Positions 4,477-26,179 of a DNA stretch of 35,577 nucleotides are shown here, one piece after another. Both the position numbers and the translations under genes were made by a program. Source of the DNA: a virus (Duplodnaviria > Heunggongvirae > Uroviricota > Caudoviricetes); IMG/VR virus record IMGVR_UViG_2778261575_000001; one strand, given 5' to 3'. How positions within the stretch are numbered: the stretch's first letter is position 1; each line of letters starts with the position of its first letter. The notes under the pieces were generated by a model, which did no database searches, was not told the DNA's origin, and saw nothing but the letters and a program-made list of their open reading frames with translations.

Positions 4477-5527
4477 TTATCTTGCCTAACTCGATGATCT
4501 TTAAGAACTGCTCATTTGTGAGTTTAAAGTGACTCCATCGGAATGCACGCGAACCATTTAGCCCCACATGATCTATTAAAATAGCACGATTGGGTCTCTT
4601 TGGCAAAGACAGATTGTATGTGAATCTTATAATGAAAGGGTATCGACGTTCTTTATAGATTTTTCTGAGTTCATCTTCAGAAAATACGCTAAAACGAATA
4701 CAATAGTCTACAAAACTATCTTCGCTTAAAAATTCAGAAATATTTTTTACGCTCTCAACTACACATAATGTACTGGCTACAGAACGATAGCGAGCTGGCC
4801 CTTTTTTGTCTCCGGTTCTATAGATGACAATGATATCTCCTCTTTTCATTCCCATCACAGAACGCATTCCACATATGTAAATTTTATGAATGCTGTTAGC
4901 ATGGGATATATCTTTGACAATATCTGGTGATTCATTTACAAGTTTTGAATCAGGGAATAGTCTAGTGTGATATTCGGGATAAATCGCCAGTAAATATTTG
5001 TTGGCTCTTGATGTCATTATTCGAGGGTAATCTAATAAAATATCACCATAAGGCTCATGCAAAGACCTCGCATATACAAACTCTTTCCCGTTATGTGTTT
5101 CTTTTTCACCATGAATGTAAAATCCGTACGTTTGGAAAAGTTTTATTAGATGGACGTGTTTGTCGAAAACAGTAACATAAATATCATCAGATTTTGATGA
5201 AAATGCATGGTCAAACGCTTTTTTTAGAAATCGTTGTCCGCGAAGGGTGCCTTTAGATTCAAATTTGAATGTTCCTATCTTTAGATGACGTCCTGGTGGG
5301 AGCGCTGGATTAATGTCATTTGCATCATCATTTTCTTTTAGATACATAAAACCTTCGATTTTATGCTTGTCATCATAGAGCACATAAGCTGATTCTCCTT
5401 CTCTGGCTTTTTTTTCTAACCAAAGAGGAAACTCTTTATAATCTTTTTTTAAAGAGTCAAAAAATGGGTCATTGTGATCAAAATCAGAGAATTTCTCATA
5501 TTTTAAAGTATCCATTAAGTTCTCCAT
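4454..5527 (-). CDS. GNAT-like acyltransferase fused to a PUA-like (ASCH-type) domain, candidate effector of an immunity-region module
   Basis: 357-aa ORF with verified ATG and TAA. N-terminal half has a GNAT-like core (...IYVTVFDKHVHLIKLFQTYGF...); C-terminal half has an ASCH-like start (KYLLAIYPEYHTRLFPDSK) followed by GDIIVIYRTG. Domain calls are by eye. Confidence 0.6.
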   Translation of the reverse strand: MENLMDTLKYEKFSDFDHNDPFFDSLKKDYKEFPLWLEKKAREGESAYVLYDDKHKIEGFMYLKENDDANDINPALPPGRHLKIGTFKFESKGTLRGQRFLKKAFDHAFSSKSDDIYVTVFDKHVHLIKLFQTYGFYIHGEKETHNGKEFVYARSLHEPYGDILLDYPRIMTSRANKYLLAIYPEYHTRLFPDSKLVNESPDIVKDISHANSIHKIYICGMRSVMGMKRGDIIVIYRTGDKKGPARYRSVASTLCVVESVKNISEFLSEDSFVDYCIRFSVFSEDELRKIYKERRYPFIIRFTYNLSLPKRPNRAILIDHVGLNGSRAFRWSHFKLTNEQFLKIIELGKINESFIIH

Positions 5528-21435: not shown

Positions 21436-21625
21436 ACTGCAGGCGCTGCGTCAGGCGCGCCTTGATTTATTAACCGGTAAACGGGTGGTGTCTGTCCAGA
21501 AAGATGGTCGCAGAATTGAATATACGGCGGCTTCTCTGGATGAGCTTAACCGGGCGATCAATGATGCGGAGTCGGTACTGGGGACAACCCGGTGTCGCCG
21601 TCGTCCGCTGGGAGTGAAATTATGA
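21419..21625 (+). CDS. W: head-tail joining protein W
   Basis: 68-aa ORF similar to lambda gpW (..L.TGKRV..VQKDGRR.E.TA.S...L......). Confidence 0.85.
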   Translation: MVTVAELQALRQARLDLLTGKRVVSVQKDGRRIEYTAASLDELNRAINDAESVLGTTRCRRRPLGVKL

Positions 21626-23214
21626 AACGAACGCCTGTCCTGATTGATGTGAACGGCGTTCCGCTTCGTGAGAGTCTCAGCTACAACGGGGGCGGTGCAG
21701 GATTTGGCGGGCAAATGGCTGAGTGGTTGCCACCGGCGCAGAGTGCCGATGCGGCCCTGCTGCCCGCGTTGCGTCTGGGGAATGCCCGGGCAGATGATCT
21801 GGTGCGCAATAACGGAATAGCGGCTAATGCGGTGGCTCTGCATAAGGATCACATTGTCGGGCATATGTTTCTGATCAGCTACCGTCCGAACTGGCGCTGG
21901 CTGGGGATGCGGGAGACCGCAGCAAAAAGCTTTGTCGATGAGGTGGAGGCGGCCTGGTCGGAATACGCCGAAGGGATGTTTGGCGAGATCGACGTGGAAG
22001 GAAAACGCACGTTCACGGAATTTATCCGTGAAGGTGTGGGCGTTCATGCGTTTAACGGCGAAATCTTTGTGCAGCCGGTCTGGGATACGGAAACCACGCA
22101 GTTATTCCGTACGCGTTTTAAAGCCGTGAGTCCGAAACGGGTGGACACGCCTGGACACGGTATGGGGAACCGTTTTCTGCGGGCCGGTGTGGAGGTCGAT
22201 CGATATGGCCGTGCCGTCGCGTACCATATCTGTGAGGATGATTTTCCGTTCTCTGGTAGTGGACGATGGGAACGGATCCCGCGTGAACTTCCCACCGGGC
22301 GTCCGGCCATGCTGCATATTTTCGAGCCGGTGGAGGACGGGCAGACCCGTGGGGCTAATCAGTTTTACAGCGTCATGGAACGGCTGAAGATGCTCGATTC
22401 CCTGCAGGCAACACAGCTTCAGTCGGCCATAGTGAAGGCGATGTATGCAGCGACGATTGAAAGTGAACTTGATACCGAAAAGGCCTTTGAATATATCGCC
22501 GGCGCGCCACAGGAGCAGAAGGATAATCCGCTTATTAATATTCTGGAGAAGTTTTCCAGCTGGTATGACACGAATAACGTGACACTGGGCGGTGTCAAAA
22601 TTCCGCACCTTTTCCCTGGTGATGATCTGAAACTACAGACTGCGCAGGATTCAGACAATGGATTTTCTGCGCTTGAACAGGCGCTGCTGCGGTATATCGC
22701 CGCCGGTCTTGGCGTTTCCTACGAACAGTTGTCCCGTGATTACTCGAAGGTCAGTTACTCAAGTGCCCGCGCCTCCGCCAATGAGTCGTGGCGCTATTTT
22801 ATGGGGCGGCGAAAATTTATTGCGGCCCGGCTGGCCACGCAGATGTTTTCCTGCTGGCTGGAAGAGGCACTTCTTCGGGGGATTATTCGTCCGCCACGGG
22901 CACGTTTTGATTTTTATCAGGCGCGATCAGCCTGGTCACGGGCAGAGTGGATTGGTGCCGGAAGAATGGCCATTGACGGGCTCAAGGAAGTCCAGGAATC
23001 AGTGATGCGCATTGAGGCCGGACTGAGCACGTATGAGAAAGAGCTGGCGCTGATGGGCGAGGATTATCAGGACATTTTCCGCCAGCAGGTCAGGGAATCT
23101 GCTGAGCGGCAAAAAGCCGGACTCTCACGTCCGGTGTGGATAGCGCAGGCGTATCAGCAGCAGATAGCGGAGAGTCGTAGGCCGGAAGAGGAGACAACAC
23201 CACGTGAGACGTAA
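21622..23214 (+). CDS. B: portal protein B
   Basis: 530 aa from the ATG at 21622 (ATGA overlap with W); position and size match lambda gpB. The track ORF starts upstream at 21592. Confidence 0.9.
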   Translation: MKRTPVLIDVNGVPLRESLSYNGGGAGFGGQMAEWLPPAQSADAALLPALRLGNARADDLVRNNGIAANAVALHKDHIVGHMFLISYRPNWRWLGMRETAAKSFVDEVEAAWSEYAEGMFGEIDVEGKRTFTEFIREGVGVHAFNGEIFVQPVWDTETTQLFRTRFKAVSPKRVDTPGHGMGNRFLRAGVEVDRYGRAVAYHICEDDFPFSGSGRWERIPRELPTGRPAMLHIFEPVEDGQTRGANQFYSVMERLKMLDSLQATQLQSAIVKAMYAATIESELDTEKAFEYIAGAPQEQKDNPLINILEKFSSWYDTNNVTLGGVKIPHLFPGDDLKLQTAQDSDNGFSALEQALLRYIAAGLGVSYEQLSRDYSKVSYSSARASANESWRYFMGRRKFIAARLATQMFSCWLEEALLRGIIRPPRARFDFYQARSAWSRAEWIGAGRMAIDGLKEVQESVMRIEAGLSTYEKELALMGEDYQDIFRQQVRESAERQKAGLSRPVWIAQAYQQQIAESRRPEEETTPRET

Positions 23215-24709
23215 TCTTTCACACATTATTGCCGCAGCATTCAATGAACCGCTGCTTCTGGAGCCCGCCTATGCGCGGGTTTTCTTTTGCGCGCTCGGGC
23301 GCGAGATGGGGGCAGCAAGTCTTTCGGTACCACAACAGCAGGTACAGTTTGATGCTCTCGGAATGCTGGCTGAAACGGACGAGTACATGGCCGGAGGTAA
23401 ACGACCGGCCCGTGTTTACAGGGTGGTGAACGGTATTGCTGTACTGCCGGTGACCGGCACGCTGGTGCACCGGCTGGGTGGTATGCGGCCATTTTCCGGA
23501 ATGACAGGCTATGACGGTATTGTCTCCTGTCTTCAGCAGGCAATGGCGGATAGCCAGGTGCGGGGCGTACTGCTGGACATTGACAGTCCGGGCGGGCAGG
23601 CCGCCGGCGCGTTTGACTGCGCTGACATGATTTACCGCCTCCGTCAGCAGAAGCCGGTCTGGGCACTGTGCAATGACACGGCCTGTTCTGCAGCCATGCT
23701 GCTGGCGTCGGCCTGCTCCCGACGGCTGGTTACCCAGACATCCCGTATCGGTTCCATTGGCGTGATGATGAGCCATGTCAGCTATGCCGGTCATCTGGCG
23801 CAGGCCGGTGTGGATATCACGCTGATTTACTCAGGGGCGCACAAGGTGGATGGCAATCAGTTTGAAGCGTTGCCGGCAGAGGTTCGCCAGGACATGCAGC
23901 AGCGGATTGATGCGGCGCGCCGGATGTTTGCCGAAAAAGTGGCGATGTTTACCGGTCTGTCTGTTGATGCAGTCACGGGAACAGAGGCCGCTGTTTTTGA
24001 AGGTCAGTCCGGCATTGAGGCCGGGCTGGCGGATGAATTAATCAATGCGTCGGATGCCATCAGTGTGATGGCCACGGCGCTGAACAGTAATGTCAGAGGA
24101 GGCACTATGCCGCAATTAACTGCAACGGAAGCCGCCGCGCAGGAGAACCAGCGAGTGATGGGGATCCTGACATGCCAGGAAGCGAAAGGACGTGAACAGC
24201 TTGCCACGATGCTGGCAGGACAACAGGGCATGAGCGTTGAACAGGCCCGGGCGATTCTGGCCGCGGCGGCACCGCAGCAGCCGGTGGCATCCACGCAGAG
24301 TGAAGCCGATCGCATTATGGCGTGTGAAGAAGCGAACGGTCGTGAACAACTGGCGGCAACGCTGGCGGCGATGCCGGAGATGACGGTGGAAAAAGCCCGC
24401 CCGATCCTGGCTGCTTCACCGCAGGCGGATGCCGGACCATCACTCCGTGATCAGATCATGGCACTGGATGAGGCAAAAGGGGCTGAGGTGCAGGCTGAAC
24501 AGCTGGCTGCCTGCCCGGGAATAACTGTGGAGTGCGCCCGGGCTGTGCTGGCTGCGGGATCAGGTAAGGCAGAACCGGTCTCTGCATCCACAACCGCCAT
24601 GTTTGAACATTTCATGGCGAACCATTCACCGGCAGCGGTACAGGGTGGCGTGCCACAGACGTCAGCAGACGGTGATGCGGACGTGAAAATGCTCATGGCC
24701 ATGCCATGA
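23204..24709 (+). CDS. C: head protease / scaffold protein C (S49/ClpP-like), with C-terminal repeats
   Basis: 501-aa ORF with GTG start; N-terminal ~300 aa match lambda gpC (..AFNEPL.LEPAYARVFFCAL... PVWAL.ND..CSA..LLASA.SRRLVTQT.R.GSIGVMM.H); the C-terminal part carries three tandem ~35-aa repeats. Confidence 0.9.
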   Translation: MRRNLSHIIAAAFNEPLLLEPAYARVFFCALGREMGAASLSVPQQQVQFDALGMLAETDEYMAGGKRPARVYRVVNGIAVLPVTGTLVHRLGGMRPFSGMTGYDGIVSCLQQAMADSQVRGVLLDIDSPGGQAAGAFDCADMIYRLRQQKPVWALCNDTACSAAMLLASACSRRLVTQTSRIGSIGVMMSHVSYAGHLAQAGVDITLIYSGAHKVDGNQFEALPAEVRQDMQQRIDAARRMFAEKVAMFTGLSVDAVTGTEAAVFEGQSGIEAGLADELINASDAISVMATALNSNVRGGTMPQLTATEAAAQENQRVMGILTCQEAKGREQLATMLAGQQGMSVEQARAILAAAAPQQPVASTQSEADRIMACEEANGREQLAATLAAMPEMTVEKARPILAASPQADAGPSLRDQIMALDEAKGAEVQAEQLAACPGITVECARAVLAAGSGKAEPVSASTTAMFEHFMANHSPAAVQGGVPQTSADGDADVKMLMAMP

Positions 24710-24745: not shown

Positions 24746-25093
24746 ATGGTGACGAAAACCATCACTGAACAGCGTGCGGAAGTACGTATTTTTGCCGGTA
24801 ATGATCCGGCTCATACCGCCACAGGCAGCAGCGGGATTTCTTCTGCAACACCGGCTCTGACGCCCCTGATGCTGGATGAAGCCACCGGGAAACTGGTGGT
24901 CTGGGACGGACAGAAAGCCGGTAGTGCGGTTGGCATACTGGTACTGCCGCTTGAAGGCACAGAGACGGCGCTGACGTATTACAAGTCGGGAACCTTTGCG
25001 ACGGAGGCAATCCACTGGCCTGAAAGTGTGGATGAACACAAAAAGGCCAACGCCTTTGCTGGCAGTGCCCTGAGTCACGCGGCGCTGCCGTAA
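24746..25093 (+). CDS. D: head decoration protein D
   Basis: 115-aa ORF with AGGAGG RBS; matches lambda gpD (..DPAHTAT...G.S...PA.TPLMLD....KLV.WDG...G.AVGIL...). Confidence 0.9.
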   Translation: MVTKTITEQRAEVRIFAGNDPAHTATGSSGISSATPALTPLMLDEATGKLVVWDGQKAGSAVGILVLPLEGTETALTYYKSGTFATEAIHWPESVDEHKKANAFAGSALSHAALP

Positions 25094-25150
25094 CACGTTA
25101 TCAGGCCACCGCGGTGGCCTGACTGATTTCTGAATGAAAGGAACTGATTT

Positions 25151-26179
25151 ATGGGATTGTTTACGACCCGCCAGTTACTCGGTTATACCGAACAAAAAGT
25201 TAAATTTCGTGCGCTGTTTCTGGAACTGTTTTTCCGCCGTACGGTGAATTTCCATACCGAAGAGGTGATGCTGGACAAAATTACCGGAAAAACGCCGGTG
25301 GCGGCCTATGTCTCCCCGGTTGTTGAAGGAAAAGTGCTGCGTCATCGTGGTGGTGAAACCCGCGTGTTGCGTCCGGGCTACGTCAAGCCGAAACACGAAT
25401 TTAATTACCAGCAGGCGGTTGAGCGCCTTCCTGGTGAAGATCCATCTCAACTGAATGATCCGGCTTACCGCCGTCTGCGTATCATTACCGATAACCTCAA
25501 ACAGGAAGAGCACGCGATTGTCCAGGTGGAAGAAATGCAGGCGGTAAATGCTGTGTTGTATGGCAAATACACCATGGAAGGAGACCAGTTCGAGAAAATT
25601 GAGGTCGATTTTGGCAGGTCGACGAAGAATAACATCACTCAGGGTAGTGGTAAGGAGTGGTCAAAACAGGATCGTGACACGTTCGATCCTACACATGATA
25701 TTGACCTCTACTGCGACCAGGCCAGCGGTCTTGTGAATATTGCCATTATGGACGGTACCGTCTGGCGTCTTCTGAATGGTTTTAAGCTGTTCCGCGAAAA
25801 ACTGGATACCCGTCGCGGTTCAAATTCTCAACTCGAAACGGCAGTGAAAGATCTGGGCGCAGTGGTGTCCTTCAAGGGGTATTACGGCGATCTGGCCATT
25901 GTGGTGGCGAAAACGTCTTATATAGCAGAAGACGGTATCGAAAAACGTTATCTTCCAGATGGCATGCTGGTTCTGGGGAATACTGCTGCAGATGGGATCC
26001 GTTGTTACGGTGCCATTCAGGATGCTCAGGCGTTGTCCGAAGGTGTGGTGGCCTCTTCCCGTTATCCGAAACACTGGCTGACGGTAGGGGATCCCGCCCG
26101 TGAATTTACCATGACGCAGTCCGCGCCGCTGATGGTGTTGCCGGACCCGGATGAGTTTGTGGTGGTACAGGTGAAATAA
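25151..26179 (+). CDS. E: major capsid protein E
   Basis: 342-aa ORF matching lambda gpE (..FLRLFFR......TE.V.L..I.G......YVSP.V.G.V...RGG.T....PGYVKPKHE ... TRRGSNS.LETAVKDLG...). Confidence 0.95.
   Translation: MGLFTTRQLLGYTEQKVKFRALFLELFFRRTVNFHTEEVMLDKITGKTPVAAYVSPVVEGKVLRHRGGETRVLRPGYVKPKHEFNYQQAVERLPGEDPSQLNDPAYRRLRIITDNLKQEEHAIVQVEEMQAVNAVLYGKYTMEGDQFEKIEVDFGRSTKNNITQGSGKEWSKQDRDTFDPTHDIDLYCDQASGLVNIAIMDGTVWRLLNGFKLFREKLDTRRGSNSQLETAVKDLGAVVSFKGYYGDLAIVVAKTSYIAEDGIEKRYLPDGMLVLGNTAADGIRCYGAIQDAQALSEGVVASSRYPKHWLTVGDPAREFTMTQSAPLMVLPDPDEFVVVQVK

Follow-up and report, generated by a model that had tools for sequence, protein, structure and literature searches.

Why does the scaffold part of a lambdoid head protease gene carry three tandem copies of a small module, whereas the lambda homologue has one? 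The question is raised by a protein encoded in the stretch of DNA analysed here (35,577 nucleotides, referred to as the window). The original prediction described three tandem related segments at 24131-24570, assigned them to the Nu3-like C-terminal part of a gpC homologue of 501 aa, and read them as an expansion of the internal scaffold region that might change the interface for procapsid assembly. It further stated that lambda gpC is shorter and has a single such segment. The segments exist, and they are located as described. Lambda gpC has 439 aa and exactly one module, and the lambda segment had been quoted with its exact sequence; three repeats in lambda C, named as a possible refutation, are thus not found.

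The protease gene and the scaffold gene nested in it

The gene is a homologue of phage 21 gene 5 and of lambda C (23204..24709, + strand), coding for an S49 prohead protease with a scaffold region. It has a GTG start and translates to 501 aa, as had been claimed. The protein shares 58% amino acid sequence identity with lambda gpC and matches PHROG 53 (head maturation protease) with E = 2.5e-227. The S49 (SppA-like) peptidase domain is encoded at 23432..24073 (+; aa 77-290). Pfam PF01343 matches at aa 146-293 (E = 1.5e-34; 119.6 bits, with a cut-off of 24.9), and the SppA structures 3rst and 4kwb from the PDB align with aa 77-290 (E = 3e-16). S162, which we take to be the putative catalytic nucleophile, is invariant in the proteins from the window, lambda and phage 21, and aligns with the serine of the SppA "AASGG" motif. 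The position of the SppA lysine aligns with Tyr209.

The protease gene is located between the portal gene (21592-23214) on one side and, on the other, the genes for a lambda D-like decoration protein (shp; 24746-25093) and a lambda E-like major capsid protein (25151-26179). This is the lambdoid head-gene block, and the head neighbours show 53-62% identity to lambda B, D and E. With its GTG start, the protease gene overlaps the end of the portal gene by 11 nt (23204-23214), as is also annotated in phage 21, and this suggests that portal and protease are translationally coupled. The short gap between the shp/D-like gene and the major capsid gene contains a strong hairpin rich in G+C, TCAGGCCACCGCGGTGGCCTGA, and then a T-rich stretch (25101-25122, +). 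The hairpin is terminator-like by its score and may act as an attenuator or affect mRNA stability.

The closest relative is phage 21. Its gene 5 matches the gene from the window over 1506/1506 nt with 99.0% identity (M81255.1 and OL657228.1), and the proteins share 98% amino acid identity. In GenBank M81255.1 ("Bacteriophage 21 head gene operon"), the repeat_region features "Tri1 box", "Tri box" and "Tri3 box" are annotated within gene 6, with the remark "function unknown; putative". These annotations coincide with the three modules, which were found independently. As the positions match, the feature is already known: the triplicated module is the set of Tri boxes of phage 21. The paper on the phage 21 head operon is said to be that of Smith and Feiss in Gene 126:1 (1993). 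In 1870 of 5426 complete E. coli genomes, the 603-nt region of gene 6 was matched with ≥90% identity, and the matches sampled are almost always of exactly this length. The Tri boxes are an ordinary, common prophage feature, found in about one third of complete E. coli genomes, and they amount to little as a discovery.

The phage 21 annotation, when mapped onto the window, gives an in-frame gene 6 homologue at 24107..24709 (+), coding for a Nu3-type scaffolding protein of 200 aa; the 2022 genome record of phage 21 (OL657228) annotates the same nested scaffolding gene. The Shine-Dalgarno sequence GAGGAGG was read from the sequence at 24096..24102 (+) and is the putative ribosome binding site in both M81255 and OL657228. 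The protein begins with a 12-aa leader, which precedes the three modules and a tail. It has matches in three stretches to PHROG 8399 ("head scaffolding protein") and likewise to PHROG 8940 ("capsid assembly protein"). In 136 of 141 distinct gpC-like genes, a Shine-Dalgarno sequence of the GGAG type and an ATG are found 2-17 codons past the end of the protease domain. Because both elements are so widely kept, comparative sequence data support the ATG at 24107 as the genuine initiation codon of the nested gene.

In lambda, the equivalent start codon is Met309 of gpC, with the arrangement AGGAGG-N5-ATG (NC_001416; position about 2543 of locus L003, corresponding to lambda nt 5342). The annotated lambda Nu3 start is Met239 (nt 5132), which lacks an obvious Shine-Dalgarno sequence; the aligned residue of phage 21 is an Ile. 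Since a conserved Shine-Dalgarno sequence and ATG are present at Met309, and none is obvious at Met239, the Nu3 start in RefSeq may not be the main scaffold start, or not the only one.

Downstream of the modules is a conserved C-terminal tail (24566..24706, +; aa 455-501), delimited from an alignment of 16 lineages. It comprises a predicted helix, TAMFEHFMANHSP, a disordered stretch and the hydrophobic C-terminal peptide DVKMLMAMP. In the AlphaFold2 model, the tail helices are at gp6 residues 160-173 and 191-196. Past the last module, a homologous tail of about 40-55 aa is kept in all lineages, whether they have one copy or several, and its common features are a short helix ([AL][LF][DE]x[LF]M) and a hydrophobic peptide at the C-terminus. 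The tail helix "AMFEHFM" follows the last module throughout the lineages aligned. The lambda stretch "ALDRLMQ", which MAFFT had aligned to Tri2, was considered as a vestigial second module and rejected, as it matches this tail helix instead.

The modules, their predicted fold and their history

Module 1 (Tri1) is encoded at 24143-24277 (+; aa 314-358), module 2 (Tri2) at 24302-24424 (+; aa 367-407) and module 3 (Tri3) at 24443-24565 (+; aa 414-454), all three being given as HMM envelopes. The GenBank features map to 24174-24277 (Tri1 box), 24314-24424 (Tri box) and 24455-24568 (Tri3 box). The segments quoted in the original prediction lie at aa 314-358, 368-407 and 415-454 (nt 24143-24277, 24305-24424 and 24446-24565), all within the range that had been given. 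Each of the three modules has about 41-45 aa. Pairwise comparison of the modules yielded local BLOSUM62 scores of 101, 75 and 89 versus about 25 ± 5 for shuffled sequences (z = 14.9, 9.8 and 13.3); with 1000 shuffled sequences per comparison, none scored as high as the real pair.

The copies share 44-61% identity at the amino acid level, 52-67% at the nucleotide level and 32-41% at third codon positions. Tandem Repeats Finder reported no repeat on the DNA, and a DNA repeat finder gave merely short matches of 12-25 nt, which may be due to chance. The repeat is detectable solely at the protein level. The low DNA identity between copies and the silent repeat search point to an old duplication that has been kept by selection on the protein, and the constraint appears to act on the protein and not on the DNA.

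AlphaFold2 predicts a single module (68 diverse module sequences) to be a three-helix bundle, with a pLDDT of 90 and a pTM of 0.69. For the whole 200-aa gp6, the modules have a pLDDT of 70-80 and the linkers of <60, and the pTM is 0.27. The model resembles beads on a string, with the modules predicted to be joined by disordered linkers. Foldseek gave no meaningful matches for the whole gp6 model, owing to its beads-on-a-string form and low pTM. A PDB sequence search with the scaffold part matched no chain, and neither Pfam nor NCBIfam has a model that covers the module.

A check of relatives for copy-number variation had been proposed, and such variation was indeed encountered, the range among homologues being 1 to 4. 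A module HMM served to count the copies in the gpC homologues of 163 loci. A single copy is found in every lambda-like homologue, on contigs labelled Enterobacter, Kluyvera, Klebsiella, Serratia, Erwinia, Vibrio, Photobacterium, Pseudomonas and Marinobacter, among others. The phage 21 lineage has three (E. coli, Shigella, E. albertii, Trabulsiella with 71% identity and Providencia with 61%), as does a set of viral contigs that share about 65% identity and that we take to be Salmonella-type. The module profile also matched at least 1092 protein clusters (E ≤ 1e-3) in a set of 1.84 billion representative proteins, and about 130 of the best 144 new matches are single copy. In long proteins, the module is located a median of about 50 aa before the C-terminus. 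The first homologue search returned mostly partial E. coli fragments, which are good for variants but not for a census; the census relied on the locus scans and on the profile search of representative proteins.

The module tree places the first modules of multi-copy proteins with the single modules of the lambda type, and both share three extra residues ("VMG"). Module 2 clusters with the second modules of the Salmonella, Trabulsiella and Providencia homologues, and module 3 with the third modules of the Trabulsiella and Salmonella homologues. Second and third modules thus group mostly by position across genera, the exception being the third module from Providencia, which is outside the Tri3 group. 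Module 1 is the orthologue of lambda's single module. The grouping by position indicates that the triplication predates the divergence of the E. coli, Salmonella, Trabulsiella and Providencia lineages. In the protease-domain tree, the enterobacterial multi-copy proteins form one clade, with the single-copy clade of the lambda type as its sister group, and the outgroups have one copy. From the two trees together, one copy is ancestral and three are derived, and the expansion occurred once, before these lineages diverged.

Several variants depart from the usual numbers. A two-copy form (L146, P0022) has a first module that is a Tri1/Tri2 hybrid, the signature of unequal crossing-over. Partial deletions of Tri2 were seen in three sequences (L131, P0008, P0016). 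In a four-copy form from E. coli (P0027), copies 2-4 are closest to one another. A distant homologue of 469 aa (P0159) is also a two-copy form, and its duplication is independent of the enterobacterial clade.

A gpC with the same length and module score as that of lambda was met in assemblies labelled Kitasatospora, Shewanella, Pseudomonas, Oceanobacillus, Leeuwenhoekiella, Akkermansia (a MAG), Enterococcus and others. The loci concerned (L013, L015-L021, L024, L040, L041 and L050) appear to stem from lambda DNA that entered public assemblies as contamination or spike-in; the contigs of several are about 48.4 kb long. In the representative proteins P0149, P0125 and P0128, lambda gpC is joined to unrelated sequence, the addition in P0149 resembling a lambda tail protein. 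Such fusions are probably products of rearranged lambda vectors or of mis-assembly and not natural architectures.

What three copies may do

We consider it rather probable that the segment, i.e. the Tri boxes of phage 21-type genes 5 and 6, consists of old tandem domains of about 40 residues that serve as protein-binding beads of the scaffold. Each copy would most likely fold on its own into a small three-helix bundle; short disordered linkers rich in Pro, Ala and Gln would join the copies, and the conserved C-terminal tail would follow. The region would be translated twice, once as the C-terminal part of the S49 protease initiated at 23204, and once as the separate 200-aa scaffold initiated at the ATG at 24107. 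During procapsid assembly, the beads may tie scaffold and protease to each other, to the major capsid protein on its inner face, or to both. Three beads could provide more contacts, or a longer reach, per scaffold molecule than the one bead and long linker of lambda. After assembly, the protease would degrade the beads, by analogy with lambda Nu3. The analysis shows the repeat and its age, the orthology to the lambda module, how the module is distributed and varies in number, the conservation of the internal start and the predicted fold; what the beads bind, what is gained from three of them and that they are degraded is what we infer. A protein-binding role of the shared region fits the interactions reported for lambda (Nu3-E, Nu3-Nu3, Nu3-C and Nu3-B; PMC3224144), and small helical scaffold elements that bind capsid protein have been reviewed (PMC3185693). 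By the same kind of analogy, the conserved tail could be the real capsid-binding element, and the modules would then be spacers or oligomerisation units. Three copies may also not be required, given that natural two-copy and partly deleted variants occur, in prophages that may or may not be viable.

The main rival explanation is that the extra copies are chiefly a spacer. The two additional modules would merely replace a lost linker of about 40 aa and so keep scaffold length or volume, and the distance from protease to tail. Single-copy proteins have a low-complexity linker of about 40 aa between the protease and module 1, which the three-copy proteins lack: module 1 starts at aa 314 in the latter (about 12 residues past the internal start) and at aa 338-362 in the former. 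The annotated nested scaffold proteins are of near-equal length (200 aa in phage 21, 201 aa in lambda), and the natural two-copy and partly deleted variants are likewise in line with a spacer. The original reading as a scaffold expansion is partly supported: it is a fair description in that three copies are derived, but the gain is partly offset by the missing linker. A mere spacer, however, accounts poorly for the conservation. Every copy keeps the signature EAKGRE / LA / PGMT / A..L across genera, and in an alignment of 21 scaffold homologues, the invariant columns are all within the three modules, with none in the linkers. Moreover, each copy is predicted to fold, and the identity of second and third modules by position mostly dates back to before the split of the E. 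coli, Salmonella, Trabulsiella and Providencia types. We therefore regard a pure spacer role as unlikely.

A further alternative treats each module with its linker as a cassette, either a cleavage site for the gp5 protease or a docking site for the portal, so that a higher copy number would help to remove the scaffold or to incorporate the portal, and not to bind capsid protein. In lambda, gpC degrades Nu3, which is also needed for portal incorporation. The inter-module linkers are predicted to be disordered and accessible, and interactions of C with Nu3 and of Nu3 with B have been described (PMC3224144). It is the linkers, however, that are the least conserved parts, and the data point to neither the portal nor the protease specifically as the partner, which leaves this alternative with a rather low probability.

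That the "boxes" might be repeated nucleic-acid signals, such as protein-binding sites or RNA structures, is suggested by the GenBank name with its nucleotide coordinates and by two matches to the CII-site pattern (TTGYN6TTGY; 24112-24125 and 24346-24359, both on the - strand), which are inside gene 6 and are annotated as CII sites in OL657228. This pattern occurs at chance frequency, with 6 matches found in the window versus 8.3 expected, and the two sites are probably not meaningful. No promoter- or terminator-like site was found within the repeat region, and a search against Rfam gave no match, which counts against an RNA element. With amino acids conserved between copies that have diverged so far at the nucleotide level, third codon positions included, and with a silent Tandem Repeats Finder, such a signal is highly improbable. 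An assembly artefact or a very recent tandem duplication specific to this genome, raised a priori by the original prediction alone, has a negligible chance of being correct: seven listed complete genomes of E. coli contain the 1506-nt gene with 100% identity and 1866 have a match covering at least 80% of it, two independent sequences of phage 21 are on record (M81255 and OL657228, both at 99.0%), three-copy orthologues are present in contigs labelled Trabulsiella and Providencia and in the viral contigs with about 65% identity, and the copies are highly diverged at the DNA level. A role at the DNA or RNA level and an artefact are effectively excluded.

The preferred reading, protein-binding beads, can be extended to the family as a whole. 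It is tempting to speculate that a so far undefined family of autonomously folding three-helix domains is the interaction unit of lambda-type scaffolds, and that its copy number of 1 to 4, changed by unequal crossing-over, tunes valency; we offer this as a tentative proposal. As a corollary, if true, the Shine-Dalgarno sequence and ATG after the protease domain (Met309 in lambda), and not Met239, would be the scaffold start throughout the family. The value of the present analysis is modest and lies in a conserved three-helix domain with one ancestral copy and three copies in one enterobacterial clade. This picture could guide the study of how lambda-type scaffolds contact the capsid shell.

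Comparison with known systems

Among functionally analogous proteins, gp8 of P22 and gp7 of phi29 bind coat protein via helix-loop-helix domains. They share with the Tri modules the principle of small helical capsid-binding elements and thus provide a functional analogy for the proposed mechanism. A search for similarity in sequence or structure to the P22 gp8 C-terminal domain or to phi29 gp7 found no match. The Tri module differs in having three helices, in being repeated and in not being at the extreme C-terminus. Tandem three-helix-bundle binding domains, such as the staphylococcal protein A domains, GA modules and UBA/CUE domains, are also among the closest known systems.

In the herpesvirus UL26/UL26.5 pair and in other nested protease-scaffold pairs, a C-terminal region is shared through in-frame internal initiation, and both products are targeted into the procapsid. 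UL26/UL26.5 differs in that there is no sequence relationship, the protease belongs to another family, and a repeated three-helix module is absent.

Lambda gpC/Nu3 is much closer. The gene order is the same, the protease domains are 60% identical, and portal and major capsid proteins show 60-62% identity. The lambda module corresponds to module 1, the C-terminal tail is homologous, and an in-frame internal start with a Shine-Dalgarno sequence is found at the boundary between protease and scaffold. Lambda differs in having only one module, which follows a low-complexity insert of 36 aa, and in total length (439 aa versus 501 aa). Its annotated Nu3 start (Met239) is inside the protease domain, whereas phage 21 gene 6 starts past it.

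Genes 5 and 6 of phage 21 are the nearest system of all. The gene 5 product has the same length of 501 aa, the three repeats are in the same positions, the gene-6 start and ribosome binding site are the same, and the head block has the same layout, with the portal gene upstream and shp and the major capsid gene downstream. The differences are point differences alone, and the copy in the window belongs to an E. coli prophage and not to the reference phage.
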